Below are positions 19,223 to 64,000 of a DNA stretch of 64,000 bases, in pieces. The stretch covers positions 186,001-250,000 of the forward strand of contig OZ237756.1 of NCBI GenBank assembly GCA_965178125.1. The letters are read 5' to 3'. Under the pieces are notes generated by a model. The model had not been told where the DNA came from. It did not search any database and saw only the letters and a program-made list of their open reading frames with translations. The DNA comes from Bilabrum cf. latius (Eukaryota). The stretch's first letter is position 1. Each line of letters begins with the position of its first letter. The position numbers were made by a program, and so were the translations under genes.

Positions 19223-19409
19223 GTTACTTGAGACGGTTGGTGGCTCTATTTGTAGGAACATCTATCGCAGCTATACCATACATTCATGTCGCCTGGCTGG
19301 ATGCAAAAAATCAGACACAGCTAGCACTGCATACCAACGGGTTCGGACCAACTGGAACAAAGAGCTGGCTACAACTTCAAGCAATCAAACAGCATTATTA
19401 CGAAATATT

Positions 19410-24236: not shown

Positions 24237-24469
24237 CTCCCCCACCAGGAGATTTTTTTTGTAAAAAAACCACGTTTTCTGATGTTGTTGCGTGCCATTA
24301 TATCATCGATATCGGATTCGGACGCGTGCACGCCGGCGGGGCGCTCAGCTCGAGAGAGACGTGGCCAGTTTCCACAGCCATTCCTAGCACCGGGCTCAAG
24401 AATAACACCCGGAATAGATTGACTGGATTAATATATTGATTAAGAAACTATTCCTCTGATCACTGAGCC

Positions 24470-36400: not shown

Positions 36401-38016
36401 CGTACACCCTGGGCTTCCCCGCCTTCGTGTGGTGGCGCGTGTGGGTTTCGCAGGAGGTGGTTCAGTTCGACCAGCTGCTTCGGGCGGCCAGGCTGGGCTT
36501 CGAGAAGCCGCCAGAGGGCAAGGTGGAGGCCATCCAGGCGTGGAACTTCAGGGAGGCATACAAGCGGCTGACCTACCAGTTCAAGCCGGAGTTCTGCTTC
36601 TACATGCTGGTGCAGATCACGCGTAAGGCACTCATCGCACTGGCCGGCCTCATCCTGGCTGACAACGCGGGCTTCTAGATGGCCTTCGTCGTCCTCGTCC
36701 TCTTCATCTCGTACGCGGTGCACGTCCGCATCATGCCCTTCATGCCGCCCTCCGAGTTCGAGTCGGTGCTCATGGACTACAGCGACGGGTCGGACAAGGC
36801 CACCAAGATGGAGATGTACCTCGCCAACAGGCAGATCACCCCGGTGTCTGCGCCCTCCGGCACGGCGGCCTGCCTGACCTCCGTGTGCGGGGGGGCTGGG
36901 TCGGACGGTGCTCGCGGCGGTCCCTCCATCCCCTACGAGCTGGCCTTCCGCAAGAAGATGTACGGCAAGCTGACCAAGGTGCTGCAGGACAGGGGCAACA
37001 TGCTGACCGTGAACGCTCTGTACGGGGGCATGACGCGCACCGTCTCCGAGAGGCTCGGCTTCCTGCAGTACTACGCGCTCAACTGGAACGTGGTGGAGGG
37101 CACTCTGCTCTTCAGCGCGATCCTCGTGGTGCTCTCCGGTCTCATGTTCGAGAGCGGCAAGCTGGAGACGCAGGAGTACGAGTCGTCGAGGGATGCCCTG
37201 ACCTACCTCGTGCTCTTCGTCATCTTTGCCTCTCTGACCTACTACGTGTGCGTGTTCGCCCTCGAGATGTACCAGATGATCAACAGCCCAGATTCCATCA
37301 AACGTGGGGCGGCCATCAAGAACGCCAAGGGGGGAGGCAAGGGACACGCGGGCAAGGGCAAGGGCGCTCCGGTCAGCGCCTCGGAGATGCAGGCCGACGT
37401 GGAGAGGGGCCTGGGCGCCGGCATGGGCGCCGTGGAGCAGACCCTGGCCAAGCAGCAGGCGGCCCGGGAGGCGAGCACCAAGGACAGCGTGACCCGCAAC
37501 CCGCTGCTCCTCAAGAAGGCCGCCAGCAAGGCCAGGGCTGCGGCGGGTCAGTCCCAGCAGAGGGAGGAGGACGAGTTCGTCCGCAACCTGCAGCAGCGCA
37601 CGGGCGGCCTGGGTCCTGAAGAGTTCAGCGTGTTCCGTGAGGAGTACATCCGCACGCAGAAGGGGCTCCGGGACATGGCCAAGGAGAACCAGGAGCTGGT
37701 CAAGAAGCTGGCTAGGGCCGAAACGGTGGGAGCTGCGGGTCCAGGTGCTGGGGCTGGAGGGGCTGGTGTGAGCGCTCTGGAGGCAGGCGCGGCGGGAGCT
37801 AGTCTGATGCGGGCGGGGAGCCGCCGCGAAGGCGTGGGTGCGGTTGGCAGGAAGAAGGCGTTCGGGGCGGGCCTGTCGAGCTTCGGGAAGAAGCAGTCGT
37901 TGCGGAGCGGCATCGCGCCAAGAAGCAGGCTGACCAAGGGGGGCATGGGCGGCGTGGCGTCGGGCAAGCCGACGACTAAGAGTGGGCCTGGCGGTAGCGA
38001 CGGGCAGGCGAGCTGA
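24470..38016 (+). CDS. Giant (~4475 aa) cell-surface protein: signal peptide, 2 LCCL-like, FN3/ConA-LamG-like, sushi-like, cadherin repeats, many IPT/TIG repeats, Cys-rich region, multi-TM domain, coiled-coil tail
   Basis: Exon 24470-24890, intron 24891-25009 (GTGAG...TTGCAG, phase 1), exon 25010-38016. ORFs 24955, 29368 and 36679 are in frame and joined by TAG 29356 and 36676. Motifs: YADTSSVCGAAVHA (LCCL), DEHSPVGT, IDINDINVAP and LNFE (cadherin), repeated T.GG...G.NFG (IPT/TIG), VDYLQVLAIF followed by several TM helices. Ends TGA. Confidence 0.9.
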
Positions 38017-39590: not shown

Positions 39591-40939
39591 GTCTCCAGGT
39601 GGTGATCGGCGATGCCCAGATCCTGCCCCCTGCCAGTTGCAGGGGCCTCCGACTGCTTCTGAGTGATGTATTCCTCTTTTTAGCGGAACCAGCTCTTGTT
39701 CTATTGATATAACGGAAAGCTGCGTCTGATGTAGTCCAGTCAGGCTCGTCGGCGCAATTCACCGATTCGCGACCATTTTGCCCGACGTTCTGAATACCAG
39801 ATTGCGAACCCCCATCCGAATCAAGTATTATTAATACGAATTGGCAGGACTACCTCCGTTGAATGTCCGGGTCGCACGCAACTTGTTTTGTATCCGTTTG
39901 GAGGCATATAAGCCTTGCCAATCACAGCACCCGACACCAAGAAATGAACACATGTTCAAAGTACTGTCTGGAGCAAACAATCTATCGATCTGCATGGTAT
40001 CAAAGCCAGCATTTCTGCATCCGGAGCATCTGATGGCTACGGCCGTCTCGACAATCATCGCCCCGGCACACTACTGCCACACACCACTGCACTGGCGACA
40101 TCGTTAGAGACTCCGGGAAACATGTGCGCATACAATACAATGGTTTGGAAACCCTCTCATTATGAAATATTGACCTGGCCACCGATCATCCAAGGTTGGT
40201 GTGCCATTTGGGGCCCCTGCAACTGGATCCCAATGGTGCTGCGACAGCTGCTTCACGCCCTGCAGACTCGTCAACAGGTTGCGGGACCCGTAGCAACTGC
40301 CAAATCGCGAAACTTGCATGGCTGCCTACAATTAAGACACAGCTTTTCAGCTTGCGAGCGGTTACTGTATACTATGGGTAGGAATGCTCAAGAACAGCTC
40401 TTCAAAGCTGCCCTGCGGCAGGGCTTGGTTGCAGCTCAATATAAATGCAAACTTCACATAGAGTCTACATCATACGTACTTGATATGCTACGGCAAAATG
40501 CAGCACGGAATTGTGACACGTAAGACAAAAATATGTGCAACGAGACATGTACGTACCCACCAAGACGCGAGCTACGACGCGTACACCCATGATTCATTTG
40601 CCCATGGATTTTGCGTGGATAATATCCACTACGGATTTGGCTTTTATTCAGCGAATCTAACGAGGAGTGTGTCACAGTATGTATAAATATTATCCTCCGG
40701 ATCCCCGAAGTAGGTGCGCCCCAGTGCAGTGCACTATACTTTCTTGCCCATGATGGTGCTTTTGGTTATATTGTAGCTATTTGTTGCATGGCACTGACTA
40801 TGTTTCTACCGATGTATACAGTTTGTTGAAGTGCCCAGTACGAGCTCACATGGATGCGCCAAGTAGCCGGGACGAGCGTGGATACCGTGCAGTTTAGGCT
40901 GCTACGAAATCCATGTAGTCGAAGTGGAACCAGAATGTC

Positions 40940-43411
40940 ATGCATACCGCAACTAGGAGGCTTTCCATGTCCAAATCTAAACGGCGGCGCCTGGTGGAAG
41001 GAGCTGGGCCCAAACAGGTACTCCGCTCTGTTGAGTCTGTCCCATCCAGCTCTATCGTGAGCTTGTCAAGCAACTTTTAGGCCCAATGCATGGGCATTAT
41101 TCGTGATGTAAGCAGCATTAGCGGCGTTATAGTAGTTGATCCGCGAGTGCCAGCAATTGAGCAATCAAAACATGTCCAATCAGCGTGGAAACACTCGCCT
41201 TGCGGGCTCGCGCTGTGGCCCGCCGATCAGCCGGGCATAGTGGTGCTTCCGGGTTTCTTGTCTCTAAAGGAGAGGATTCAAATGTGCGTGCGAGCATCCA
41301 CTCAGTGGTTGGGACCCCCGTTTTAGACCAATCTCACTGAAATGTCGAGGCTGCAGAGAGCCCCTGCCCCTGCTCGCCGTGGCGAGGCTGGCTCGGACAA
41401 GGCAGCCGAAGGAGCAGCTACTGCTACCAGTAGTGGCGGCACCAGTCGCACTAGGGATACAGAGCAGCATGCACATGGTGACCCGTGGGCTGAGTACGTC
41501 TCCTGGATCGGGACCTGGAACAGGGAGACTGCCAAGTGTGGGCCTGGGCTCTGGGCACCAGGTGCTGCCACCATGGAAGCTTCGAGTCGGAGTGGCAGTG
41601 GCAGTGGCAGTGGCAGTGGCAGTGGCAGCGGCAGTGGCAGCGGCAGTGGCAGTGGCAGTGGCAGTGGCAGTGGCAGTGGCAGTGGCAGTGGCAGTGGCAG
41701 TGGCAGTGGCAGTGGCAATGATGGGGCGATGGGCCATGCAGAGCTCCAGACTGGTCAGTCGGTCCCATCGGGCCCTGACTTGGCACGAGCCCACGCATCG
41801 TCTTCGTCCTCGTCGTCCTACGCGAGTCCACCAGCTCTCAGAAAGGACCAAATGTCCCAGCCAGTCCCGCCGGGTCCGAGTGACGGAGACTCGGCTGGTG
41901 AGGCAAAGCCGAAGCCTACGCTTGGGGGCAGTGAAGCTATCACGAAACATGCCGCATCAGTCAAGGGAGTGTATTCGTCACAGCTGGCTGGCATCAAGCG
42001 CCCCGCGGCTGGTCCATGCCTAGAGGACGAGGACGCACCAGTCGGCTCATCCACAGCGTGCACGGATCTGTCACCGCTGCCGCCCAGTGTCAGCCTCAAG
42101 ACCAGGATGCATCGCACTGCATGGTCCACTCTTGGATTTCACTACGCGTGGGGAGCAAGGCAGTACGTGGATGGGGCGGGGTATCCAGAGCTGCATGCTC
42201 AGCTCGCGACAGGAGCGGATGGACATGGTGCTGGTGCTGGTGCTGGTGCTGGTGCTGGTGCTGGTGCTGGTGCTGGTGCTGGTGCTGGTGCTGGTGCTGG
42301 TGCTGGTGCTGGTGCTGGTGCTGGTGCTGGTGCTGGTGCTGGTGCTGGAGCTGGGATCGGAGAAGCCCCAAAGGACCCCAAGGGTAGCTAGGCACCGTCC
42401 TGCGATGCACCTAGCACAACCCCTACCGTTGTCACGGCTTCCGGTTCCACGGCTCCCGCCTCGAATCCCTTGGGTCTACCTCCCCCCCCTTTCCCCGCCT
42501 GGCTGCACACCAAAGGCAAGGAGCTCTGGAGGAGGGCGGCGGATCTGCTTGGACCAGAGCATGCTGCCCTTCTGATGACACCACCGGTGGAGAGACATAG
42601 CTAGACATAGAAGACAGGGAATGTGAAGGGCAGCGGTGCTCCCTAGCCCCAGGCAGCATCGGGTCATGCGGCAAGCCAAGCTGCACGGGCAGGCCAACCA
42701 CCCGTGGTACCACGACATGCCGTCCCTCAGTTCCACCCTGAGGCCGCGATCGTGAACCTATACAAACCAGGGGCTGCAATGGGACCGCACAGAGACGATG
42801 CCGAGCCATACCGAGGTGCCCCTGTGGTATCAGTGTCCCTGGGCTGCCACGCGGTATTCCTGATCGGCGGTGAGGAGGAGAGGGATGGGGCGAGAGCGGT
42901 CCTGCTGCGGGCCGGTGATGTCGTGCTGATGGGGGGTCAGGAGAGGCTGGCGCTGCACGGGGTGGGCGCTGTGTTCCCTGGGACCGGGGATGTTGAGATG
43001 CACGAGGCCCTGGGTAGGATGTCAGAGGGAGAGGGGTCACCTGGAAGTGGAAGCCCAGCTGACTCTAGACCAAGGAGACCAGGGGTGCAATCGACAGGCG
43101 CTGTGCCTGCAACAGCTCCAGGTGCCGCAGGACTGCACGCATCCAGCAGTGATACTGCACCAACAACAACAAGAGTGTGGCTTGTGGAAAAACTGCACCG
43201 TGCCTCAGAAACTGCGCGTTTGAGTCCTTCGCGCAAATAGGACGGCGCGGAATGCAGCAGGGACCATGCAGGAGGCAGCCGGGATGTTTGCCAAGAGCTC
43301 GAGGTCGATGCGGAGACCACTGCGGCCGTGAGCAGGTTGCTGTTCTGCCGCCGGCTCAACATCAATCTCAGGCAGGTGTTCCCGCCTGCAGGGGGAGCAC
43401 CAAGCAGGTGA
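40940..43411 (+). CDS. ALKBH1: AlkB-family 2OG-Fe(II) nucleic-acid dioxygenase, ALKBH1-like (~823 aa)
   Basis: One frame carries PGIVVLPGFLS, TNL, WSTLGFHYAW, PPPFPAWL, EAAIVNLY, GPHRDDAE (HxD), PVVSVSLG, LRAGDVVLMGG, LALHGV and RRLNINLRQV. Seven internal TAGs (41078, 41324, 42389, 42602, 42608, 42644, 43238); ends TGA 43409-43411. Confidence 0.88.
41591..41716 (+). repeat. Coding hexamer microsatellite (AGTGGC) x ~21, encoding (Ser-Gly)n
   Basis: Directly visible, with two AGCGGC variants, in frame within the ALKBH1-like gene. Confidence 0.95.
42227..42346 (+). repeat. Coding hexamer microsatellite (GGTGCT) x 20, encoding (Gly-Ala)n
   Basis: Directly visible perfect array, in frame within the ALKBH1-like gene. 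Confidence 0.95.
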
Positions 43412-45687: not shown

Positions 45688-48600
45688 TTACTCCTCATAG
45701 ACAGCGCCGGCAGCCCCGCCCAGCCGCAGCTGCACCGCAACCCCGAGGGCCGCAGGGGCACCCAGGGAACACACGCCCCTCTCGTGCACCATGCAGAGCC
45801 CCTGCAGCCCGCCCCTAGAACTCTAACGGCTGCCCACATTGGCGCCCACTCCACCTGGGGAGGTGGCGGCCCACGCCCGCACCCGCACCAGGCCGCGGGA
45901 CAGCACAGGCACCTCCTGCAGCACCTGCACCGCTGACGCCGCCACGCCCACGCTCGTCACACCGCATCGACCCGCCGCCACTCCGTCTTCCCTCCTCTTC
46001 AGCCTGGCCGCCATCTCACCCAGCGCCTCGGAGGTTGCAACCGGCTGCAGGCTCACCCTGAGCGTGGCCTGCTTGCGCCAGGCCAGGGGCATGTAGTCAG
46101 ACCCTGCAGGCACCGAGGCGAAGCCGGCTGGGCCTACGGGTGACGAGTGCGGAGATGCATACCCCCGGGGAGGTGGCGATCCTGCACCGCTGGCGCCTGC
46201 GTGCATGGAGCCAGGGGTCTGTGGCTGCTGGTGCTGTTGCTGGTGCTGATGAGCATGAGCCGAAGTGGCCGCAGCAGCCGTCGCGCCATTTTGCCCCGCC
46301 AGAGACAGGGGCGACTTGACGGCGATCACGTGGCACCCCGTTGCTGCCCTGAGTCGGGTCAGCGCCCCGAGGCACCTCGCCATGAGTGCCTGTCCGCGGT
46401 GTGGTTCCAGCCCCGCGCACTGCCGGTAGAAAGGGGCCAGGGAATCCAGGACCACGAGGCCCGCGGGCCGGGTACACGCGTCCGGGGTCGTGCCGGAGAA
46501 CAACGGAGAGGGGGGGCTGTCAGCGCTCGGGGAGCTCCTGGCGTGTGTTCCCTGGCCCGTGGTGGGTGTCCTTGGCATGCTGGGGCCTCTAGATCGCTTG
46601 GAGGGGGGCTCGGGGTCGAGGGCTGCTGCTTGCCCTGCAGGTGGTATGCGTGAAGTTGCGCCGCTCATGGAGCCTGGCACCATTGCATCATCATCGTCGT
46701 CGTCATCGTCATCATCGTCTCCGCTCTCATCCACCATGCCAGTCTGCCCAGCGTTGTCCTGCGGCCGAGCACTCGAAGCTGAAAGCTGTCCATCAGCTGC
46801 CGTGTGCCTCGACTTTTCCTCCACCTCTTTCCCACCTCCCACTTGGTGCATCCGAGCGTCTGCATGTCTTCCTCCTCCTCTTCTTCCCTTCCTGCTCGAC
46901 AGGGCGGCCATGGCGGCAGGCCGCATCAGCTTGGGGGGCGCCATCACAATCTTCTCCGACACCGTCAGGGCGGTCTCAACATCGAAGGGGGTGGCACATC
47001 GCGAGAGCAGCACCCTGCCCATGCACGCCCGCACCACTGCGTTGATCCTCGCGTTGATCTCAGCACGGGCGAAAGGTTCCAGCTCCTGCAGAGCCAAGGC
47101 CACCTGGGTCCCTAGCGAGACGGCTGCAAGGGCGGGGAACTCGGGAAGGAGGGCGTGGGCGTCCCGGCCCAGCCCGTGAAGGTGCATCGCACTACCTTGC
47201 ATGTGCTCCCCGAGCGCAGCGGCTGTACATGAGGAGGCAGAGGCCATGGCAGAGGAAGAGGAGGATGATGCTCCTACCCGCGACTGTTCCTCTGAAACGT
47301 TGCCCGCTCCTCCCTGGGTGCCCATGCACCCTTGCAGCATCAGCCTCTCTCGGTCAACCCCCGGCTGTTTCTCCCCCACTGATTCACCGCGCCTTGCATG
47401 GAAACGCCCAGCTTCCAGCGATGCCCCCTGGGAATAACCCCTGCTGCCGCCCGCTGTGAGAGACACCTGGGTGGCTCCAACCAGCGCCTGGGATAGTGCC
47501 CCGCGCCTCAGGTGCCGAGCGCTGGCCTAACGCATGCGTGCAACTTGTCCATGTCCGTGCTAGATGTGAAGCCCTGCCTGGGTCAGAGAGGGTCCTCCGT
47601 TCGATCCACCGGTGGATTGCGCCGCGTGCCTCCTCTGCGACAGGGACTGCACTAGGTCACCCTAGGACTGCGTGAGTGCCATGCCGGCTGCGATCGCCCT
47701 AAGGACAGGGGGAGGGCCGGGTGACCCTTCGGTTTTGGACGGGGGGCTGCTGGCGATACTACTGCCCATCCTTGGCTGTGCGCCTGTTGCACCAGCACCA
47801 GCTCCAGCACCAGCTGCAGCTCGGTTGGAGAGCAGCGCGCCCAACTTTCCTTTGTTCAGGAAGTGTGCGAGGCCGAGCGGGAGCGGAAGATCGTTTGCCG
47901 CGCTTGCAAGTGAGTCCTCGCTGGCATATATCTCGCTCGCGTGGCTGTCAGTGGACGATTCCCCCTCGCCCCTGCCCCTGCCCCGCTTCCTGCTCCTTCT
48001 CGGGCCAGTTCCCTTCGCCCCTGCCCCCCTCTCCTTCGGTGGAGTCGTGTCAAGACCTGCGGGCTCGCCCAGCGCTGTGGCAGCACCCTGAGGATGGAGA
48101 GTGAATGAATCGTCGGCTGCTCCCCTCGTGGCTGGATCGGTACTGTAAGGAGCCTGCGATCCTGGAAGGACGGTCGCCTGGGGTGGACTGCCCATTTCAT
48201 CGGCACGCCGGTCTCCGTAACGCCTCCTTCGCAATGATTTGAGACTACCACCACGCGCACCAAAACCCTTTGTTGCAGTTGCGTTATATTGATCGAGGCC
48301 GTGATCCATGAGCAAGGCACATTCCCGCGACATGGCTTCCGAAGCAAGTGCTCGGGCCAACCGAGCAGCGCTCCAGCGCTGGTCGCAATCGACCACGAGG
48401 GCGAGCGACTCGCAGCCGCCGAGCGACCTTGGCAACACGCATTGCACTACTGCATTCAATGCGACCGTGCTCTTGCCGGTCCGGCGCCCACCGTACAGCT
48501 CGGTCCAGCCCATTTTAGGAAGTCCCGGTGATGATCCCGGTCGATGCTTGCCGCAGCGATCAATCACGCCAATCCCGGTTGATTGATGTACTGCCTCACC

Positions 48601-48750
48601 AAACTCGCTTCCAAATCCAGATGGCGACGGTACAGTGCTGTGCTGTGAGCCACTGTCCGGTTGTCGAAATGGAAGGTTCCCGCCTGCCGCAAGGATAGCA
48701 CGCCGCTCTAAGATAAGCTCACCAAGGTTGGCCTCTGTCACAGAAACCAT
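45688..48750 (-). CDS. XRCC2: RAD51 paralogue XRCC2-like (~1020 aa with long insertions)
   Basis: Walker A region ELYGGRRTGKS followed by QCVLPRSLGG and VVDCDQRW; Walker B LVVLDSLAPFY; late motif DYMPLAWRKQ. The two halves are in frame across TAGs (47662, 47560, 47527, 45823). Ends TAA 45690-45688. Confidence 0.8.
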
Positions 48751-49089
48751 TTTCAGTCCTTGGAAATTGCTAGTTCTTGGGAATTGGGTGGTGTCGCCCG
48801 CAAAAAGAATGCAACAAGACGAATTCAAGCAGGCGAGCACGTAATCATCGTTCAAACTGTGATACTCGGCAGCAGAAGTTTCCACTAATTCCAGTCAGCC
48901 GGTAGACAGCTGTACGCAACAAGCAATGCTTGGAGGCGCGGCAAGCAGCTTGGCCGCAGAAAAATAGGTGCTGAGGCTTGCGACAACTTGAAGCCAACAC
49001 AGTTGCGACCGCTGCTGGCGAGGGCCGTTCGGCAACGCGGTAACTCCTGCCATCTACAGGTTCAAAGTCCTGTGCACCATGATTTGACC

Positions 49090-52000
49090 ATGAGTTCCGA
49101 GTCCCAAACAATGCCAGCAGGCATGTTGGAAAAGTTTCGCAGGTCTTCTCTCCCTAGGCTACCTTCTTCTTTGGCTCACTTGGACGATTCGGATGAAGAC
49201 AGCGAAGGCGGTCCTGAAGTCCACAGACAACCATCCGATAATACGTATGGGTCTGCAGACGATCAATCTGCTGGTGCAGCTAGCACGGATGACGAAGGCC
49301 CTGTGCTTCCGCGGTCACCTGGGAATGGACCTGTAGTTGCACCAACCAAGGCTGACCGCGTGTCGCGTAGCAGGCATGGAGCACGCACCAAGCGGCGGAT
49401 GCGCACTGGATTTTCATTTCGAGACATGCAGTTCGATGCCACACCTGGCAGCGACCCGTTCGCTGGCCTTGCACTAGAGCAGGTGACGGATGTTACCGCA
49501 GGCTCATCCGGCGCTACGGCACACAAGCACGATCCGTCCCATGCCCTGCATGCAGACGGGAGCTCATCAACCGCAGGCAAGCCAATCAACGATACACCAG
49601 TGGAGCTGCACCGGCTAGGCACGCGAAGGCGAGGCCCTCGCCGTGGGAGCGCCCCCGCCCCGCAATCGGACTGGTTCGCGCAGCTGGCCTTTGGGATGGG
49701 GGCCCACGTGGTCGCGTCTCCGGCGGGGGGCATGTCGGTGGCGAGCAGCACCCCAACAGGGGCGGGGAATTCCCCTCGACGCCACGGCGGGGGGGGTGCC
49801 GCGTCCTCCGAGCTCGTCACACCCCATGCACCGGGCAGCACATCCGCCTCGCCTACGCAGCCTGCTACTAGTACACCCAGGGGGTACTTCCGGTTCTCCG
49901 ACAAACCAAGCGGCCAGGCCGCGCCCGGAGGCAGGAGCGCGCGAAAGCGCGGCCACGTCCGTGTGACGAGTGGACCCGGAGCCAGTTCCGCAAGCACCGG
50001 GTCCTCGGTGGGCGGGCTTGCGGCCCTGCCCTCGACCCCCCTGCGGCGGGCCCTGGCGAAGCGGCTGGAGCAAGCGAGGGGCAGATTGGCGGTGCAGCGG
50101 GGTGGCACGGGTGACGGCGATGATGCTGTTAGTGGTGATCTTGGGGGCGGGTCTAGAGGCGGAGGAAGGCGCGGGGTTGGGGGCGATGATGCTGGCAGCG
50201 AGTCGCCTCGGAGGCGAGTAGGATTCTCCGCCGGTCAACTGCACTCGCCTCCGAGTCCCAGCACACCCGCTGGAGGTGCTGGCGGTGACGCGGCATACTA
50301 TGATGGTGCTGCTGCGGCTGTGCTGGACCGCATGAGGGAAGCAAGGGGGGTATATGTCAGCATCAGCAGCAGCAGCAGAGGCAGCCGGAGCCATGGTGAT
50401 GCCAGTCGTGCTGATACAGGTGTGGGGGAGGCGCATGGGAGCAGGCAGAGCGCCTCTGTGATGGCTTATGCCAGTGGGTAGGAGGCAGTGCGGGGGAGCC
50501 ATGCCAGTGGGTAGGATACGGTGAAGGTATTTTCAGCCGGCGTGGACATGGACATGGGCATGGGCATAGACTAGGCTGAGAACTAGGACAAGAATACAGG
50601 GGAGGATGGAGAAGAGGACGGGGTGGAGGATGGGGTGCTGTATCGAGTGGACACCTGGGGTCACAACGTGTTCGACCAGAGTGCATCGCACGGTGGTGCG
50701 TGGAGCCCTAGGGCCGGATCCTCCCGCCGAAGGCACAGGCGACGAGGAACTCCCAGGGGCGGGGGCGCTGCCCCAGGGAGCAAGCGATCCAGACAGAGGC
50801 AGAGGCAGAGGCAGAGGCTCCGGATCAATACGGATGGGCTTGATAGTGACGATGGAAGCACCACCGGCGAGTTTGGTCGGTTCGGAAGAAGCACTCGGGG
50901 AACAGCGAATAGGAGGGGTCAGGCCGGCAACAGCACCAGGGGTAGGGGGGGAAGGCCGCATTCCGCACGGTATTCGAAGGGGGACAGCGGCGGGCTGACC
51001 CGCAAGGCGATGCACCTTGTAGGCTACGGGGAGTTCGGCCAGGGACTTTGGGCCCGAGATACTTGTAGCAGTGCCAATCGCAGGAAGAAGAAGACGACGA
51101 CAAAAATGCATGGCATTGCGGTGCAGACAGTGCGGGGAGGTGGCCGCACCTCACGAGGAGCAGGGGGGAAAAAGCGGCGCTCGCCACGAGGCGCTGCCAG
51201 CCCGACTCATCATCGTCAAAGGCCACGCACAGCCCGGAGCCGGAAATCCCCTCGGCGGCCCGTATCTGGGAAACGATCAAGCCCCCGCACTCGCGTGGCC
51301 AGCAGAAACAAGACACCAAGGCACCCCGCAGCAGCAGCGGCATCCAAGACCATATGGGGCGAGCATGGAGCAACTGCTCGAGCGGGAGTCGGTCGCAAAC
51401 TTCCCAACCGGCCAGGCACAGGCCCCGACTCCAGCACTGGCACCCTCGTGCAGTGCACCTAGTCCGTCACGTCCTCCGGTAGCGGCCCAGTGTCGAGACG
51501 CCCGGTTCCGCCAGCATCGCGGCGCCACGCATCCCCTCGAGGCACTGGGCTGCTGCTCAAAAGGGGCAGGAGCAGAAGGAGCTCACTAGCCGTTGAGCTG
51601 CCCCGCCTGGCATACGGCGCCGAGGCACGTCTCAGAGCCGAGTCGGAGTTTTTCAGGGGGGCGCAGGTGGTCGCAAGCAGCACGCGGGACCGGGCGCAGG
51701 CTCGGATCCTGGCGCGCGGCGCCGCGCGGGTGAGCCGTGCGGAACATCAAGCGAGGCTTGCGTCGCCTCGAGTCGACCTAGGGAATCAGGCATCGGGGGG
51801 TAGGCGGGATCCCGGCGCTGAGGATGGGGCGGGGCCCAGACCGCCGGAGGTGAGCAGGGGGGCCAGCCGAGCAGGTGCTCCGGGGAGGGCGAGCACGCAT
51901 CGCCGAGTGAGCATGCAAGGAGCATCCAGGGAGTAGGGGCCGAGTGGGCCTGTTCGAGCTGCGACCATCGACCTCGGAGCACTTGCTTCTGGTGAGGGCG

Positions 52001-52275
52001 AGCACGATGGTATCGATGGTCGCAAGGGCACAGTGGCTGGCCCCCGGGCTTTCCCAGTGGTCCACCGGCAGCTTGAGTCGCTCAGGTGGCTGCTGCCTCC
52101 CGATGCGGCCAGCAGGCAGCCTGATGTGGACGTGGTGCTGGGGCTCAGGGACCTGCAAGGGGAAGGGGCGGCTCCTCCCGATGCGGGTGATTTTGAGGGC
52201 CGGCCTGCTGCTGCTGCCAGTGCTGGCAGGTAGTACACGGGGAGAAGGCGAAGCATGGTGGGGCGGCCGCGCTGA
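49090..52275 (+). CDS. ~1060-aa low-complexity, probably disordered G/S/R-rich hypothetical protein
   Basis: ORFs 48988, 50623, 51490 and 52033 are in one frame, joined by 7 TAGs (50479, 50512, 50572, 50584, 51460, 51934, 52231). Ends TGA 52273-52275. Confidence 0.65.
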
Positions 52276-53635: not shown

Positions 53636-54827
53636 ATGGTGAGTCTCTTGAGGCACTAATAATCGTGGCATATATTCACACGTACGGCCGTGGATCGCTT
53701 TGACTGGTTTCTCAGCGCTAATGTGCGAGCATCGGGATGGTCTCCATTTGCTCGCTTTTTTGAGTGATCTCATCGCAGTCGGCAATGGAATACAATGGGG
53801 CCGCAGTCATCGCCATGGTTGGCAAAGACTGTGTTGGTATTGCAAGGTGAGTAGCTGCGCATTATTTGACGTGGACTGTGCACCAGCTTCGATCAGCCAA
53901 GCACAAACTCAGCGACGTATCCACTCGGCCCAGCTTCCATTTCGCAGCGATCTGAGATTGGGGCAGCAGGCTCTGACGGTAGATTGCAACTTCAGCAAGA
54001 TTTTCAAGTATAACGACAAAATGCTGTGTGGGTACGCCGGTCTGGCTACGGACGTGACGACATTGCACGAGACCATGGAATTCAAGCACAACATGTATTC
54101 GCTCAAGGAAGAGAGAGATATGAAGCCTAGCACATTCACCGGTCTATTGACGCACACGCTGTACGAGAGGCGGTGAGTTTGCCGTCCAGTTTAGGTTGCA
54201 GGCGCATCATCATCAGCACAGGATGGCATATGCTCCAAATCGCTCGTGTCCTCTTCATGCATGCGTTCTCTCCTGCACGACAACAAGCTCTTCATGCACC
54301 GCAGATTTGCCCCGTACTTTTGCGAGCCCGTGGTGGCAGGCCTGGAGGGCAAGGAGGGCACCCCCTACATCTCGGGGATGGACCTCGTGGGCGCTCCCGT
54401 CAGGACGGAGGACTTCATCGTCAGCGGGACCTGCACGGAGAACTGCTACGGAATGTGCGAGAGCCTGTGGCACAAGGATATGGTGAGGAAAGCGAGTGGC
54501 CTTGTAGGGTGTATGCCGCAGTGTTGACGGATCGGTTTCACGTTCCACAGTGGTTCCTTGGATCTGATCACGATGTATCCTCCCATGCCTTCGGGTCACC
54601 ATCTCCTAATGCAAGCATCGTCACCCCGCTTCATCGTTACACTCGTCCCATATCCTACCCTTGCGTGTTCCTACCGTTCGCAGGACGAGGACGAGCTCTT
54701 TGAGACCCTCGGTCAGTCGCTGCTTGCCGCAGTGGACAGGGATGCAATCAGCGGGTGGGGGGCCGTGGTGCACATCCTGAACAAGAAGGGACTCACGACC
54801 AAGTACCTCAAGTCCAGGAAGGACTGA
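53636..54827 (+). CDS. PSMB3: 20S proteasome subunit beta type-3 (205 aa)
   Basis: Five exons (53636-53638, 53779-53846, 53948-54172, 54305-54482, 54684-54827) with GTGAG...CAG introns. Spliced product MSAMEYNGAAVIAMVGKDCVGIASDLRLG...GLATDV...YERRFAPYF...CESLW...AVDRDAISGWG...RKD. Ends TGA. Confidence 0.97.
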
Positions 54828-55107: not shown

Positions 55108-57398
55108 ATGCCTTCTAAAAAGAAAAGCGATAGCTCAGCGCCGGAACTAAAGCCCTTGCCCAAACCGTCAACACTACCGGATTGGAGGGAATCATAGGAG
55201 CCAGGGGATTCAGATACTGAGGGTGAGCCAAACGCATTTTTTCGTGTTTGTGAGCCTGCTACCCCGTGCAAGTATACCGTTTGCCAATTTAAAGATTTAG
55301 CTCCATGCAGATTACTAGTACTATGGAAAGTTTCGACGAGACTATGTGCATCTGTGCGAGGTGCTTTCAATTGGACCACATCAACAGCTTGTAGGCAGAA
55401 TCAAGCGACCAATGAGTGAGAATGCCATGTTAGTAGCATCACACCGTATCCAAATGCAGAGTAGAGCGATTCACGCAAGCGCCGCACGACTATGTTATTG
55501 CCGCAGCGACGATCGAGCTCCGAGCCGCGAGCGAGCAGGCCCAGGCCGGCGACGGCAGCATCGACCGGCAGGCCAGCGCCGAGGTGACCGCCGCCCTCGA
55601 GGCGATGTCCGCATCCAACGACCGAACGCTTCCAATCGAGCTGCGTCCGAAAACCGCAATCGATGCCTTCGACGTGAGCGACGAGCTCGCCTGTCTTCAG
55701 CTCAGGGGCACCCGCCTCGACCCAGGCACCTGCGCCGCACTGTGCCTTGCGCTGCCGAGGTGTCCCGAGGTGAAGGAGATTTCGTTCTGGCAGGTTGCAA
55801 CCACGCCTGATCTGATCCGATCGCTGGCGGAGGCCCTGCGGAGCGAAGGTTCGGCGGTTCGCAGGGTGGCCATCGACTACTCCCCGCTGGTGCCCCCGAA
55901 CATTACCAATGGCTCTGATACCAGTGGTAGTGGTAGCAGCGATGTTGCTATTGGAAAACAGGAGCACTGGCAGCAGGAAGGCGGGGATGACGATGTGGAC
56001 GTGACGAGTGCTGCCGCATCGTCAGGAGCAGGTGGCGGTCCTGCTCCTACGGGCCCTTCAGACGACGAGCAAGAGGGAGGCAGCAGCCCAGGGAACAAGG
56101 AGAGCCCCACGGCTGCCTTCTTCGATCTGCTGCGGCCCGAGGCACGGCTCGAGTGCCTGTCGCTGCGTGGGAACAGGATCTGCGACGATGACGTGGGGCA
56201 CTTGTGCACTGCACTGCTGCGCACGCGGTACCTCAAGGTGCTCAACCTGTCGCGGAACAGGCTGACTGCGCGCGGCGCCGCGCAGTTGCTGGGCGCCGTC
56301 CGGGACTGTCGTGGGCTCGAAGGTCTGTCGCTGTCCCACAACTAGATAGAGGAGGAAGATTCGACGAAAACCAGGCCGGTAAGGGAGTGCGAGGGCGAGG
56401 GCGAGGGCGACGCTGGCTTGGAATCTGAGGCCGGGGACACGATGAAAGATGAAGATGATGAATAGACCGAGTCGGATCTGCAGCAGTTTGCCAAGGAGTT
56501 AGGACGGGCGGTTTCGCGGAGGTACTTGCTCGGGGAGAGCGAGTGGGTGGCCCGGCAGCGGCTGGGCATTGCCGCTGGGCTGTTGGAGGAGGGAGAAGAC
56601 GAGGTGCCCTAGTCACAGGGGCAGGATACGGGGGGCAAGGGCGGGAAGGGTAAAGGCGGCAAGGGGAAGGATAAAGGGAAGGGCAAGGACAAGGGAGGCA
56701 AGAAGGGGGGCAAGGGCAAGGGTGGTGGGGAAGACGTCATCGAAGCCGAGATGCCCGAGGTGGATGAGCTGCTGGATGATGACGAGTGCTCATTGGCGCC
56801 GCGGCAATGGTGCGGAACCGGGTGCATTTCCCTCAGGTACGTCGATCTGGGCCGTAATCCCATTGGTGTGGATGGCGCTTGCTCGCTGCTGGATGCAGTG
56901 CTGCCTGCCCTGCCCGAGCCAGCTGATGGTGAGACAGCTATGGGCGGGGATGGGGAGAGAGATGGGCTCGGGGCAGCAGGGGTGTGTACTGGCGAGGGCA
57001 GTCCCAGGAGTGCCAGCGGGACATCGAGCAAGGCCGGGTCGGGCAAGGGCAGTTCCAGGAGTGCCAGCGGGACATCGAGCAAGGCAGGGTCGGGCAAGGG
57101 CAGTTCCAGGAGTGCCAGCGGGACATCGAGCAAGGCAGGGTCGGGCAAGGCTAGCCCGCGAGGTGGCGGGAAGAGCAAGAGCAAGGGCAAAGGGAAAGGG
57201 AAGGGGCATGCTGATGTCGAGGAAGGTGACCAGCGGGAGTGCTTCTTGGAGTGCATTGCACTGTAGGCGTGCGGTGTGGCCGGGCTGGGTGACGATGTCG
57301 GAGCGGCATCGGACGAGTTGGCCAGCAGGCTCGCTGGAGACGGGCTTGTGGAGAGGGCTGGGGCGAGCGGTGTGGAGGTGCAAGTGAGCACGAGCTGA
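55108..57398 (+). CDS. RNI-type leucine-rich-repeat protein, LRRC71-like (~703 aa)
   Basis: Exons 55108-55222, 55311-55415 and 55507-57398 with phase-consistent GT-AG introns. LRRs LECLSLRGNRI, LKVLNLSRNRL, LEGLSLSHN*I and LRYVDLGRNPI, plus K/G-rich linkers. Six internal TAGs; ends TGA. The LRRC71 resemblance is from recollection. Confidence 0.75.
56996..57148 (+). repeat. Coding minisatellite, 3 x 51 bp (GSxRSASGTSSKAGSGK)
   Basis: Three near-identical units here; the downstream duplicate (~59780-59830) has one unit. Confidence 0.9.
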
Positions 57399-57636
57399 GG
57401 CTATTGGAATGCATACATATCTACACGAACAATCAATGTGTATCACTTTATTTCCCAAGCATTCAGCTTGATTCAGGCCAAAGACGGTCCGAGTGGTTCT
57501 CACTCTCGTCATCCGCCGGCTTGTTCTGAATTCTGTCAAGAAAGCCAGGCGACTGTGTCCCTTGTGCCCCGGGGGCTTGCATATTGGTGCTGATTGAGTA
57601 CGTTGACAGCAGAAAGCCTTCAATCGAAGTTCCAGC

Positions 57637-59214
57637 ATGTCTCTTGGACTCGCGGAGGAGGCCGAATATGTCCAGCCCAATCTCGACTTTCACTTTCTCG
57701 TATGTTCTGAAGTGTTCGTTGTCCACCTGCTGCCAGCGGCTATTGATTTACTGGGTGTATGGCTTGGTTCACTTACATTTTTCCTGCTACCTGCTCGCCA
57801 TCTTGTTTCGCAGGCGCCGTACACTGGGATACACAACTACAAGACTCTGGATTATACCAGAAGCCTTAAGCAGGTTGATAAGGCAGTAGAAGCAGTCAGA
57901 CAAGGGCGATCGAAGATCAGCATGCCGGGAAAGACTTCAAAGAGGGCCATTGAGGAAGTGGCAGTGGTACTGTCCGAGGATGGCGTCCGGCTGCGATCCT
58001 TGCAAGTAAGTCAATCAGAGCGAGAAGGATTTGATGCAGGCGTGGGATCTGCGCTTTGCTCAGCAGTGTGTGTGGACACGATTGACGGCTTCCCGCATCT
58101 GCAGTGCTTGATCTCATAGTGGGCGAAGTGGAGGCTGGACTGCATGGCTGCCCTTGCACCTGCCATGCTGCACGCGGGCGGCAAGAACCGGCTTCGAGTC
58201 CTGGTGCTGAAAGGGTTGACGCACATGTCATTGGAGTGCGTGCAGGTCTTCCAGAAAGTGCTGGCCGACTCGCAGTGCAGTCTGGAGGTGCTGAAGATCC
58301 GCGATATGCTAGGCAGCCTCCGCTGTATCCCCCCCCGGAAGCCGGAAGTCATTGAGGAACTATACAAGATGAATCGTCTCATGGCCGACGGCATCCGATG
58401 CAACCGGAGCATTCGGTATTGTCACCTGGGTCCGTGCAACTTGGATCTTGACACAATGCTGGCATGGACAGAGGCACTCAGCAGCAACAGCTCGTTGGTG
58501 CAGTTGGAAACGAGCTGGATCCTTCTGCCGGGATGCGGTTTGGCCCCACATAATGCGATGGGGGAGTGCGCGGCCCGCATTGTGAGGGAGAATGCTAGCA
58601 TCCAGCACCTCGCCTTCAAATACGACATGAATCCAGCCCGGAAATCTACCCCGTGCCGAGTGGGTCCGCTGTGTGATGCGGTACGGCAAAACGAATCGCT
58701 ACGGTCGCTCGTGATCGGACCAACAGGTCATCCCGACTTCCGGGGCCAGCATGAAGAAGCAGCCAGGCAGTGCGGCAGAATGCTGGATGCTGTGCTGGCC
58801 AACCCACGGATCGTGTTCTTCCAGTGGCAACGTGCGTGTGGTACTTACCACGAGGATCACATAATCCCTGCCATGCTGCCCCGGTTGCGGGCCTTCAACA
58901 GCCGTCGCAGGCGCATCGGTGCACTGCTGCATCACCGTGTGGCGAGCCAGGCCCGGCGGGATGCGGGGCTGGTGTGGCGGGCCGCATCCGAGGGCAGGCC
59001 TCTGGAGCTGGCCAGGAGGCTGAGGCTGGGTGTGATGGCAGGCGGGGCTGAGCTTAAGGTGGATGTGGGCGGGGTGATGCAGGACGCGATGGAGGCAGCG
59101 ATGGCGAATGGACACGAGGAGTGCGGCGTGCTAGTGCGTCGGTCGCTGGCGAGGGAGGTGCGGAGGCGAGCGATCTATGGCGTGGGTGGGGGGAGCGTGA
59201 AGGTTGTCTCGTGA
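57637..59214 (+). CDS. RNI-like LRR protein with ankyrin-like C-terminal helices, copy A
   Basis: ORFs 57637 and 58144 are joined through TAG 58117. Probable 114-nt intron 57700-57813 (GTATGT...TCGCAG). Repeats of the type ALSSNSSLVQL, NASIQHL and NESLRSL; EAAMANGHEECGVLV is ankyrin-like. Ends TGA. Confidence 0.7.
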
Positions 59215-59534
59215 CCGGGTGATATGTAATAATGAGGTGTTGTCTCATTGGCAATGATGCCGCTACGATGCCACTGGCATTGCCTCTAGCGTGTGTTCTC
59301 GCACCCTGGTTATCCACTGGATCGTGCGATCAGTGCGCCTGTGAATGTGGGTGCTGGCGGAGCTGACCAGTTCGGCGCATCGCCCGCTGGTGCTTAGGCC
59401 ACCATGCTGCGGGCATATGCTTGGCTGTGTGAAGCCTAGGGTATGACTGTCTGAGTCATTCAAGCGTGTTTGGTTACCACAAGGAAGGTCTCGTGCTGCT
59501 TACTCCCATCACATGGCCGCAGAGTGCAGCCCAC

Positions 59535-60080
59535 ATGCCCGAGGTGGATGAGCTGCTGGATGGTGACGAGTGCTCATTGGCGCCGCGGCAATGGTGCGGA
59601 ACCGGGTGCAATTCCCTCAGGTACGTCGATCTGGGCCGTAATCCCATTGGTGTGGATGGCGCTTGCTCGCTGCTGGATGCAGTGCTGCCTGCCCTGCCCG
59701 AGCCAGCTGATGGTGAGACAGCTATGGGCGGGGATGGGGAGAGAGATGGGCTCGGGGCAGCAGGGGTGTGTACTGGCGAGGGCAGTCCCAGGAGTGCCAG
59801 CGGGACATCGAGCAAGGCAGGGTCGGGCAAGGCTAGCCCGCGAGGTGGCGGGAAGGGCAAGAGCAAGGGCAAAGGGAAAGGGAAGGGGCATGCTGATGTC
59901 GAGGAAGGTGACCAGCGGGAGTGCTTCTTGGAGTGCATTGCACTGCAGGCGTGCGGTGTGGCCGGGCTGGGTGACGACGTGGGAGCGGCATCGGATGAGC
60001 TGGCCAGCAGGCTCGCTGGAGACGGGCTTGTGGAGAGGGCTGGGGCGAGCGGTGTGGTGGTGCAAGTGAGCACGAGCTGA
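59535..60080 (+). pseudogene. Duplicated 3' fragment of the LRRC71-like gene, open from an internal Met
   Basis: Matches 56751-57398 but lacks all upstream exons. The frame is intact and has CAG where the parent has TAG. Confidence 0.6.
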
Positions 60081-60315
60081 GGCTGTTGGAATGCATACAT
60101 ATCTACACGAACAATCAATGTGTATCACTTTACTTTCCCCAGCATTCAGCTTTACCCAGGCCAAATCCTCCGAGTGGTTCTCACTCTCGTCATCCGCTGG
60201 CTTGTTCTGAATTCTGTCAAGAAAGCCAGGCGACTGTGTCCCTTGTGCTCCAGGGGCTTGCATAGGTGCTGATCAAGTACGTTGACGGCAAAAAGCCTGC
60301 AATCGAAGTTCCAGC

Positions 60316-61911
60316 ATGTCTCTTGGACTCGCGGAGGAGGCCGAATATGTCCAGCCCAGTCTCGACTTTCACTTTCTCGTATGTTCTGAAGTGTTCGTTG
60401 TCCACCTGCTGCCAGCGGCTATTGATTTACTGGGTATCTGGCTTGGTTTACTAACGTTTCTCTTGTTACCTGCTCGCCGTCTTGTTTCGCAGGCGCCGTA
60501 CACTGGGATACACAACTACAGGACCCTGGATTATACTAGATACCTCAAGCAGGTTGACAAGGCAGTGGAAGCAGTCAGACAAGGGAGATCAAAAACCAGC
60601 ATGCCTAGAAAGACTTCATAGAGGGGCATTGAGGAACTGGCATCGGTACTGTCCGAGGATGGCGTCCGGCTGCGATCCTTGCAAGTAAGTCAATCAGAGC
60701 GAGAAGGATTTGATGCAGGCGTAGGATCTGCGCTTTGCTCAGCAGTGTGCATGGACACGATTGACGGCTTCCCGCGTCTGCAGTGCCTGGTGTCATAGTG
60801 GGCGAAGTGGAGGCTGGACTGCATGGCTGCCCTTGCACCTGCCATGCTGCACGCGGGCGGCAAGAACCGGCTTCGAGTCCTGGTGCTGAAAGGGTTGACA
60901 CATATGTCATTGGAGTGCGTGCAGGTCTTGCATGCAGTGCTGTCCGACTCGCAGTGCAGTTTGGAGGTACTCAAGATCCGCGATATGCTAGGCAGCCTTC
61001 CCTGTATCCCCACCCGGAAGCCGGAAGTCATTGAGGAACTATACAAGATGAATCGTCTCATGGCCGACGGCATCCGATGCAACCGGAGCATTCGGTACTG
61101 CCACCTGGGTCCGTGCAACTTGGATCTTGACGCGATGCTGGCATGGACAGAGGCACTCAGCAGCAACAGCACGTTGGTGCAGGTGGAAACGAGCTGGATC
61201 CTTCTGCCGGGATGCGGTTTGGCCCCATACAATGCGATGGGGGAGTGTGCGGCCCGCATCGTGAGGGAGAACACCAGCATCCGGCACCTCACCTTCAGAT
61301 ACAACATGACTACAGGCCGTAAATCTACCCCGTGCCGATTGGGTCCGCTGTGTGATGCGGTACGGCAAAACAAATCGCTACGGTCGCTTGTGATCGGATC
61401 AACAGGCCTTCCCGACTTCCGGGGCTAGCCTGAAGAAGCAGCCAGACAGTGCGGCAGAATGCTGGAGGCTGTGCTGGCCAACCCGCGGATCGTGTTCCTC
61501 TGGTGGCAACGTGTGTGTGGTACCCACCACGAGGACCACACCATTCCTGCCATGCTGCCCCGGCTGCGGGCCTTCAACAGCCGTCGCAGGCGCATCGGTG
61601 CACTGCTGCATCACCGTGTGGCGAGCCAGGCCCGGCGGGATGCGGGGCTGGTGTGGCGGGCCGCATCCGAGGGCAGGCCTCTGGAGCTGGCCAGGAGGCT
61701 GAGGCTGGGTGTGATGGCGGGCGGGGCTGAGCTTAAGGTGGATGTGGGTGGGGTGAAGCAGAACGCGATGGAGGCAGCGATGGCAAATGGACACGATGAG
61801 TGCGGCGTGCTAGTGTGTCGGTCGCTGGCGAGGGAGGTGCGGAGGCGAGCGATCTACGGCCTAAATGCGGTTGCTGAAGTAGTGGTAAGTGATCAAACGT
61901 GTTTGCGTTGA
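60316..61911 (+). CDS. RNI-like LRR protein, copy B
   Basis: ORFs 60316, 60823 and 61459 are in one frame, joined by TAG 60619, 60796 and 61426. Probable intron 60379-60492. No frameshift; new C-terminus ending TGA. Confidence 0.7.
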
Positions 61912-62264: not shown

Positions 62265-64000
62265 TCACCTATCTCGAAACCGAACCGATACATCTACACT
62301 GAGTGGTACATCCTCGAGACGCTCATTCTTAGAGTGTACATGCACATACAGAGAGGGCTCTTGCACCGTGACCCCGACGTGCCATTGGAGCGGCTCCTCT
62401 GACTCGGTCTCACCATCCATGGGTTGGCACGATTGTGCCCGGGACTGCCCACCAGCGCCGTGCGGGTCCAAAAACACCATGACGTTGATCGTTTCCGCCG
62501 CAGCCTCAGTGCCGCAGCGCGGTACACGTCTAGCAAGCACCGCAAATCGGCCCATGGTATTCGAATACAGCGTCCACGGACAGCCATCCAGGACATCGAT
62601 CAGCACGTCGGTTTCCTCGATCTCTGCTTCAGCGTCGGCCGAATCAGAGCCGAAACACATGCCAGAAAGCGTGAATAATGCAAATGAGAGCCCTGGATCT
62701 GCGGGTGCATCGCATTTGACTCGACTTGGGAATGCCTCATTCCGGGAGGTATCTTCTGCCGGCACGCTCTCTCTGTCGACAGAGCCAGCAGCACCACCGG
62801 CCACGCCACCCGCACTAGCCCCAGCAGACTTGACACCAGTTCTAGCCCCAGCACCATCGTCGCCAGTACTAGCCTTCTCACCCTTGCTGCCTGCCCTTGC
62901 CTCCGCACCGTCGCTACTAGCTCTAGTAGCTGCAGCGGCTTTAGCTTCATCCTCACGATCACGCCTGATGCCAGAGATATCTGCATCGATGCGAAGCAGC
63001 GAATCAAATGCAGGCTCACCGCCGGGCTCTGCGTGAATAACCAGCCTAGTCATTGTGCTACAACTCGCATCTGTACAAATAGTTTCGCGTAGCTCATCTT
63101 TCAGCTGGTAAGGGCCACCGCCGGCAGCCTGATGTATCGCAACGTGCACACCGGGGAATCGGCTCGTTGATTGACACTCGCTGCCTTCTGGTTCAATTTT
63201 TTTGAAGCAGCCACACCGGTACGTAAGCAGCACAGGGTCACACGCATCCTCACTGGGGTCGCATAGGGCTGGAAGCAGATCCGCACGCGGTACTTTCCAC
63301 GATTCAAGGTCGGTCGAGGCCATGTCCCTCATCACCAATCTCTAGTCCTCCCGACCTGCCATAGTATCTGCGAGCTGTGCCTCCAGCCATCCCTCACCAA
63401 CACCAAAAGGGGCGGACGCTGCTATCGCCAGCTCCACATCCTTGTTGTTGGCTTGCAGCAGATGGAAACCCTTGGTCACGTCGACGATCTGCAGCGTACT
63501 GGCCATGGTGATCAGCGATCTGGTCACACGAGGCGCCGAAAATGAAGTACCCCGCGTGGTTTCACGTCCCTAGACGAGTGTCTCAAAATCAACTTTGTTG
63601 ATTCCCTCACCCTAGGCGAATACATCGACAGCACGGCCGTAGTGAGAAAACCCGGACATGCGCACAAAAGGCTCTGCTGCTCGGCCAGCATGGGATGCAG
63701 CATATTGATCAGAAGCATCCGGCACTGGGACAGCGTGGGATCCCACGCAAATCACACCCTTGGCATTGCAAGGGTAGGAGTCGGCGGCATTCATGTGATT
63801 GTTGCCAGCTGCGGCCACAAGAAGGAAGCCCAGGTTGTGCAGCACATCGGAAAAGTGATCCAGCTCCTCTGAGATCCTGATCATAGTCTCCGCTCTGATG
63901 GGAGGCCTCTTGGTTCCGACCGCCTGCTTTCTTCCGTCCCAGTTCGTAATGGCCATATTCACCACCCCTAGGACGGTCCCATCACGAAAAGAGGCGCCCA
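62265..64000 (-). CDS. Subtilisin-like (S8) serine protease with long C-terminal extension, 5' end outside the window
   Basis: VVNMAI, LLVAAAGNN (oxyanion Asn), VICVGS, FSHYGRAVDVFA*G and then GTSFSAPRV (catalytic Ser), all in one frame across TAGs 63612, 63570 and 63342. The frame ends at TGA 62267-62265, which might overlap a splice donor. Confidence 0.82.

Follow-up and report, generated by a model that had tools for sequence, protein, structure and literature searches.

UAG appears to be a sense codon, most probably for glutamine, in a G+C-rich stretch of Bilabrum cf. latius DNA

We analysed a 64-kb stretch of DNA from Bilabrum cf. latius (contig OZ237756.1, positions 186,001 to 250,000; hereafter the window, with positions counted from its first nucleotide), in which the triplet TAG recurs inside long open reading frames (ORFs), including those of two tandem gene copies. 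TAG is almost certainly a sense codon here. We consider it likely that UAG is sense throughout the nuclear genes of this organism, most probably as glutamine (Gln), and that UGA, the main stop, and UAA are the terminators. The window has a G+C content of 61.7%, looks like eukaryotic nuclear DNA and contains long, for the most part unbroken ORFs with Pfam domains, among them an ATG4 protease, an AlkB-like dioxygenase, a Rad51-like ATPase, an LRR protein, a subtilase, two JmjC/cupin proteins and an IPT/TIG protein of 4368 amino acids (aa) (Table 1). A flagellar protein resembling CFAP53 is also encoded, with PDB entry 6u42 as its top match in that database.

The ORFs were delimited from stop to stop with TAG left open and were cut at TGA or TAA, which means that their lack of in-frame TGA and TAA arises in part by construction. 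In 14 long ORFs, comprising 17,008 codons, we counted 86 in-frame TAG, as against 96 expected from the off-frame rate, and the terminators are TGA (10) and TAA (4). With the CFAP53-like and proteasome beta-3-like genes included, the 16 gene ends comprise 12 TGA, 4 TAA and no TAG, although only these two additional ends are anchored by a conserved C-terminus. A comparison that is independent of how the ORFs were delimited, and not circular, is the distance that can be read on to the next TGA or TAA past the end of each standard-code ORF. For ORFs of at least 300 aa, this distance has a median of 350 codons after those ending in TAG (n = 19) and of 36 codons after those ending in TGA or TAA (n = 17; Mann-Whitney p = 0.006), while at a threshold of at least 200 aa the medians are 183 and 58, respectively (p = 5e-4). 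Homology extends across the TAGs as well: 11 of them separate the three blocks of the ATG4-like protease that align with human ATG4A/B in the PDB (residues 145-291, 695-748 and 1079-1111), and the homologues of the 4368-aa protein align in one stretch across the TAG at 36676. Two of the three subtilase TAGs (codons starting at 63612 and 63570) lie within the S8 domain, between the oxyanion Asn and the catalytic Ser motifs; a 41-nucleotide (nt) intron between these two was considered and rejected, as it would break the frame ahead of the catalytic Ser motif.

TAA is not a sense codon here. In-frame TAA and TGA are both absent from the 14 ORFs, compared with 35 and 293 expected from off-frame rates, a deficit that is partly due to the way the ORFs were cut. 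If TAA were synonymous with TAG, approximately 23-27 in-frame TAA would be predicted from the A-ending share (21-24%) of CAA, AAA and GAA, and four ORFs terminate in TAA. Retention of UAA and UGA as stops is supported independently by the read-on comparison given above (p = 0.006).

To identify the residue inserted at UAG, the C-terminal 969 residues of the large IPT/TIG protein were searched against 1.84 billion representatives, which returned 2692 homologues at E ≤ 0.001, and the best 150 of these were aligned locally with X placed at the TAG. The column of TAG 36676 contains 124 Q, 10 L, 4 M, 1 I and 1 G (n = 140); once gaps are filtered and the query carries X at this residue, Gln is found in 123 of 139. 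Columns with Gln at 80% or more are rare in this alignment of the best 150 homologues (just 4 of 462 well-aligned columns), and of the other conserved columns, 96 in number, the large protein has the consensus residue at 87. A family hidden Markov model (136 homologues) also scores Q highest, at 530.1, followed by K at 527.7 and by X at 527.0. For the Pfam domains, three segments were translated 20 times, TAG being given a different residue each time, and the scores were summed. The values were P 41.2, N 40.2, E 39.9, Q 39.8 and L 35.3 bits for Peptidase_S8 (two TAG sites), D 93.3, Q 93.1, E 93.0 and W 90.9 bits for Peptidase_C54 (two sites), and Q 22.5, D 22.0, K 21.9 and L 17.7 bits for LRR_6 (one site). 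The sum over the five sites places Q first (155.4 bits), ahead of E (154.6), N (154.1), P (153.7), K (153.4) and S (150.6), with L last (144.0). An alignment of TAG mainly with Leu, Glu, Tyr or Lys, which an earlier note on this DNA had named as the outcome that would count against glutamine, was not seen.

The same note had drawn attention to a tandem duplication, in which TAG in one copy faces CAG in the other in both directions. A local alignment of copies A and B has 2332 ungapped columns, of which 126 are mismatched (94.6% identity), and the window has no further paralogue pair. The breakpoint at 56744 is inside the LRR gene. The second gene of the duplication matches no Pfam family at E ≤ 5. 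The single alignment gap between the copies, of 102 nt, is within a coding 51-nt tandem repeat (56991-57150), which has 3.1 copies in copy A and two units (102 nt) fewer in copy B. Identity is uneven along 56744-61860, reaching 97-98% in the LRR-gene tail and the intergenic stretch and approximately 92-93% in the second gene, which suggests either that gene conversion has acted on the first part or that the second gene has changed faster.

Direct reading and local alignment of the copies place the four TAG sites and their partner codons where the earlier note had them. All four are in frame with long ORFs, the first in 55416-57398 and the others in 57607-59214 or 60286-61911, and the frames past them remain open until the TGA codons at 57396-57398, 59212-59214 and 61909-61911. 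The downstream frames are thus intact, as had been claimed, but this says little, because it is expected by descent at 5-7% divergence. Among the TAG-involving differences, two are TAG/CAG and one is TAG/AAG. If UAG is read as Gln, the CAG/TAG differences are ordinary synonymous C-T transitions, whereas the AAG/TAG difference would be a Lys/Gln replacement. C-T transitions are the commonest change to be expected, and the swaps by themselves are no more than chance and transition bias would give, while the window-wide pattern exceeds both. The equivalence of TAG and CAG put forward in the note is therefore supported chiefly by the window-wide and orthologue evidence and not by the paralogue swaps, in keeping with its own caveat that the swaps count only together with that pattern: alone they are thin, and the pattern is strong. 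The TAG common to both copies (58117/60796) is not certainly a codon, because it may be the acceptor of an intron. GTAAGT occurs at 58006, and an in-frame 114-nt intron at 58006-58119 would put the acceptor at this TAG (58117-58119); a possible 3' splice site, the CAG at 58102-58104, lies 13 nt ahead of it.

Purifying selection acts on both sides of the TAG at 61426. In the second gene, the ratio of non-synonymous to synonymous substitution rates (dN/dS) between the copies is 0.41 upstream (58120-58746) and 0.37 downstream (58750-59181) of this TAG, so that selection past it is not relaxed; relaxation there was the other outcome which the note had named as contrary to glutamine. In the downstream segment 11 changes are synonymous and 12 are non-synonymous (binomial test of neutrality, p = 0.02), and the entire second gene has 45.5 and 53.5, respectively (p = 2e-6). 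In the LRR gene, the 37 codons past TAG 57264 show 4 synonymous differences and 1 non-synonymous difference. The sample from the LRR-gene tail is small and its selection signal is mixed.

TAG accounts for 86 of 732 putative Gln codons and is unevenly distributed, with 4 in the 6021 codons of three genes of high G+C at third codon positions (GC3) and 82 in the 10,987 codons of the other ORFs. In the conserved genes of high GC3 it is thus approximately a tenth as frequent as in the other ORFs, and where codon bias is weak and conservation poor it comes close to its background frequency. This is the behaviour of a non-preferred synonymous codon, although it could also reflect a costly decoding of UAG. 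As a putative mechanism, a tRNA-Gln with a CUA anticodon, which is one base from the normal CUG anticodon, would pair with UAG and not with UAA, and an eRF1 with lost or weakened recognition of UAG would still recognize UAA and UGA; this reasoning follows excerpts of PMC5304391 and PMC11687900. The motifs with which eRF1 recognizes stop codons are GTS, NIKS and YxCxxxF, and for Iotanema the replacement T32G is reported in eRF1, at a residue in contact with the third-position G (PMC5304391, in excerpt).

We also observed three in-frame TAG-TAG doublets (11570-11575 and 15829-15834 on the minus strand, 55431-55436 on the plus strand), compared with approximately 0.7 expected from the per-ORF TAG rates. 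Two of the three are followed by CAT, and the doublet at 55431-55436 may lie ahead of the point where the LRR gene really begins.

Several observations weigh against UAG being a Gln codon, or limit how far the data bear on it. The stop-to-stop ORFs may include 5' leaders or unrecognised introns, and some of the 86 TAGs may fall there. A first version of the read-on comparison, in which the count ended at whichever stop came next, did not reach significance (p = 0.097). In two ORFs a TAG lies just 3 and 13 codons ahead of the TGA, and on this account it is conceivable that TAG terminates translation in certain contexts. Of the approximately 100 codon differences that separate the copies, no more than three in-frame ones involve TAG, and the LRR gene upstream of TAG 57264 has 0 synonymous and 5 non-synonymous differences, a pattern which is not purifying. 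Informative columns are few, and one TAG alone is on a strongly conserved orthologue column. The PDB alignments of ATG4, AlkB and CFAP53 have no TAG in conserved columns, and most of the 86 TAGs have no assignable residue because, in ATG4 and AlkB, the TAGs stay clear of the conserved blocks. Likewise, orthologue columns are lacking for the TAGs of the second paralogue gene, the subtilase and the 1989-aa ORF (16 TAGs), because word-index protein searches with these three, covering lengths of 0.55-1.75 times the query, gave no match at E ≤ 0.001. In the Pfam sum, E, N, P and K are behind Q by 0.8, 1.3, 1.7 and 2.0 bits, respectively. In both of the PDB alignments that reach the subtilase TAG at 63612 (63610-63612, minus strand), the APG motif has its Pro at this site, and Pro is also the best-scoring residue for Peptidase_S8 (41.2 versus 39.8 bits for Q). 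Either this position is not Pro in this subtilase or the gene is degenerating; the GC3 of the subtilase ORF (0.56) is tied with that of the AlkB-like ORF as the lowest of the ORFs. In Iotanema, 41% of the conserved UAG columns are Gln-dominated, a rate in line with the 44% of the canonical Gln codons (PMC5304391, in excerpt), and a single miss at TAG 63612 is unsurprising in this light. The proposed mechanism, finally, has no tRNA or eRF1 gene in the window to stand on: ARAGORN and Rfam returned no tRNA gene there, no Rfam family was matched, and no eRF1 gene was found among the window ORFs in Pfam scans.

The closeness of E, N, P and K to Q in the Pfam sum, all within 2 bits, leaves some room for UAG to encode a residue other than Gln, such as Glu, Lys, Asn, Leu or Ser, as in other UAG-only lineages. 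Codes with UAG as Leu or as Ser and UAA as a stop are on record (excerpts of PMC5304391 and PMC8271138), Leu is second at the conserved column, and one paralogue TAG is opposite Lys. However, that column has 124 Q against 10 L and not a single E, K, N, S or P among 140, the Pfam sum places L last of the 20 residues, 11.4 bits below Q, with S 4.8 bits below, and CAG is the partner in two of the three paralogue differences, so we regard another residue as unlikely. Slightly less likely still is a UAG with a dual role, or one decoded inefficiently in competition with eRF1. The scarcity of TAG in the three high-GC3 genes and its two occurrences shortly before TGA would fit this explanation, and ambiguous codes are on record in ciliates, Blastocrithidia and Amoebophrya sp. 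Kv. However, TAG ends none of the 16 genes, the base after TAG is like background (G 39, C 18, T 15, A 14; n = 86), and ORFs with 10-16 TAGs could not yield a full-length protein under inefficient decoding. By our estimate, approximately 1-2 TAGs within the last 15 codons are expected by chance in 14 ORFs, given the TAG rate observed.

The two explanations that keep the standard code are much less probable than either of these. U-to-C editing could turn genomic TAG into CAG in the mRNA; TAG would then act exactly like CAG, which fits the conserved Gln column. No evidence in the window bears on editing, but 86 specific sites would be required in 64 kb, and we know of no nuclear U-to-C editing system of such a kind, which makes this very improbable. 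We give even less credence to the TAGs being nonsense lesions of decaying paralogues or pseudogenes. Nonsense transitions from CAG to TAG are common, copy B has three TAGs in its second gene where copy A has one, and the first gene of copy B is truncated, all of which would suit decay. Decay would be expected to produce TGA, TAA and frameshifts as well, yet none is seen in 17,008 codons, with off-frame TGA at 1.7%, and dN/dS stays under 1 both before and after the TAG. ATG4 and the large TIG protein, whose genes are conserved and single-copy, also have TAGs, and a dead-copy lesion is disfavoured because TAG 57264 belongs to the full-length LRR copy, copy B being the fragment. Glutamine remains the reading that we prefer for UAG.

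The features discussed here are collected in Table 1. Between its catalytic blocks the ATG4-like protease has low-complexity inserts of approximately 400 and 330 aa, which are in frame and have no TGA or TAA. The AlkB-like ORF contains two perfect hexanucleotide arrays (41591-41717 and 42226-42354, approximately 21 copies each), encoding Ser-Gly and Gly-Ala runs. Just upstream of the 4368-aa ORF and in a different frame, an LCCL-domain ORF (24467-25234, plus strand) has a signal-peptide-like start and may be the first exon of the same gene. Antisense ORFs of 609 and 481 codons (17555-19384) overlap the CFAP53-like gene on the plus strand; ORF length by itself is no proof of a gene here, because such long antisense ORFs are a usual artefact of G+C-rich coding sequence. 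Two head-to-head ORFs, at 45688-48894 (minus strand) and 48889-52275 (plus strand), have stop-to-stop frames that share 6 nt (48889-48894), which suggests a very short common upstream region. At 23628-23933 a 153-nt unit is duplicated in tandem with 98-99% identity, and on the minus strand it forms a repeated 51-aa segment of an ORF that belongs to no family.

Table 1 Positions of the duplicated copies, their TAG sites and the principal genes in the window
Feature	Position	Strand	Description
Copy A	56744-59181	+	3' end of LRR gene, intergenic stretch and second gene
Copy B	59528-61860	+	Same units; first gene present only as a 3' fragment
LRR protein ORF	55416-57398	+	660 codons stop to stop; 6 TAG; ends in TGA; Pfam LRR_6, LRR_1, LRR_4, LRR_8
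Second gene, copy A	57607-59214	+	ATG at 57637; probable introns 57700-57813 and 58006-58104 (from sequence)
Second gene, copy B	60286-61911	+	3 TAG; C-terminus departs from copy A past 61860
TAG in LRR gene	57264-57266	+	CTG-TAG-GCG; copy B has CTG-CAG-GCG, with CAG at 59946-59948
TAG in second gene, copy B	61426-61428	+	GGC-TAG; copy A has GGC-CAG, with CAG at 58747-58749
TAG common to both copies	58117-58119 (A), 60796-60798 (B)	+	Codon 5 of third exon, or intron acceptor
TAG in second gene, copy B	60619-60621	+	Partner AAG (Lys) at 57940-57942 in copy A
4368-codon ORF	24910-38016	+	IPT/TIG and cadherin-like domains; C-terminal membrane region; 2 TAG
TAG in 4368-codon ORF, residue 3923	36676-36678	+	Near-invariant Gln column
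TAG in 4368-codon ORF, residue 1483	29356-29358	+	Unconserved column; 10 aligned homologues: G3, N2, A2, S1, V1, L1
ATG4-like cysteine protease	13060-17580	-	1506 codons; 12 TAG; Pfam Peptidase_C54, E = 2e-43
Subtilase-like ORF	62265-63998	-	Runs off window end; 3 TAG; Pfam Peptidase_S8
1989-codon ORF	4070-10039	-	16 TAG; ends in TAA; no family
AlkB-like dioxygenase ORF	40754-43411	+	9 TAG, every one outside the conserved core
Rad51/AAA_25-like ORF	45688-48894	-	4 TAG, three of them between two matched blocks
Proteasome beta-3-like gene	53760-54827	+	GT-AG introns; exons without TAG; TGA at conserved C-terminus

UAG as Gln with TGA and TAA as stops is a rare but already known kind of code change. 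According to excerpts of PMC5304391 and PMC11687900, it occurs in Iotanema spirale (Fornicata) and in the ciliates Hartmannula sinica, Trochilia petrani and Protocruzia tuzeti. As in this type, which corresponds to NCBI table 15, UAG alone appears reassigned in the window, it stands at a conserved Gln position and was never seen terminating, while UAA and UGA stay stops. The features of the type found here are in-frame UAG in conserved genes, a Gln column, no UAG terminator, and UAA and UGA stops; for the Gln column the sample is very small. In contrast to these taxa, the window has 62% G+C, and TGA ends most of its genes (12 of 16). For I. spirale, 126 genes were scrutinised, of which 119 had complete 3' ends, 104 with UAA and 15 with UGA (PMC5304391, in excerpt), and the phyllopharyngeans have UAA in 87-98% of genes and 27-54% G+C (PMC11687900, in excerpt). 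The window also differs from the records of the Iotanema type in being a 64-kb multi-gene stretch with long, insert-rich ORFs. In the literature searched, whose coverage is incomplete, we found no G+C-rich organism with a code in which only UAG is Gln. It is possible, though we advance this only tentatively, that the window comes from a G+C-rich (62%) flagellate outside the ciliates and fornicates, of a lineage that has no variant code on record, which independently reassigned UAG alone to Gln and uses UGA as its main stop, and in which the tenfold TAG depletion in high-GC3 conserved genes means that UAG decoding is still costly through residual competition with eRF1. Its base composition would then be the opposite of the A+T-rich genomes that host most stop reassignments, and the reassignment would have been caught with a measurable fitness gradient. 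Codes that split UAG from UAA are few, and new cases are taken as evidence of uncoupling through a tRNA with a CUA anticodon (PMC5304391 and PMC11687900, in excerpt). A case in G+C-rich DNA, where TGA predominates among the stops, would broaden the known conditions for this uncoupling, and would supply a natural eRF1 that recognizes UAA and UGA while passing over UAG. In practical terms, standard-code gene prediction on this genome will err, given that 19 of the 36 ORFs of at least 300 aa end in TAG under that code, and it cuts the 4368-aa protein into three ORFs of 1482, 2439 and 445 aa.

Other known codes resemble the window in part. In the code with both UAR codons as Gln (NCBI table 6), found in many ciliates, hexamitin diplomonads, Dasycladales and other ulvophytes, Streblomastix and Amoeboaphelidium, a stop is read as Gln through a near-cognate derivative of tRNA-Gln, as would also be the case here. 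Unlike in table 6, there are no in-frame TAA in 17,008 codons and TAA ends 4 ORFs. Scotinosphaera (Ulvophyceae), with UAG as Ser (PMC8271138, in excerpt), likewise has UAG alone reassigned and TAA and TGA as stops, but in the window Ser is found in 0 of 140 sequences at the conserved column and is 4.8 bits under Gln in the Pfam sum. The rhizarian exLh (PMC5304391, in excerpt) and uncultivated (TARA) phyllopharyngean ciliates (PMC11687900, in excerpt) have UAG alone as Leu and keep UAA, whereas Leu in the window is found in 10 of 140 against 124 Gln and is the last of 20 residues, 11.4 bits below Q. In the ambiguous codes of Condylostoma, the karyorelicts, Blastocrithidia and Amoebophrya sp. 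Kv, one codon both terminates and encodes, and mostly all three stops are involved; in the window TGA and TAA are never in frame and none of the genes ends in TAG, but with 16 genes only, and with TAGs 3 and 13 codons from two of the ends, UAG may still have a dual role. Amoebophrya sp. Kv itself has an A+T-rich genome with all three stops in frame, whereas the window is G+C-rich and has TAG only.

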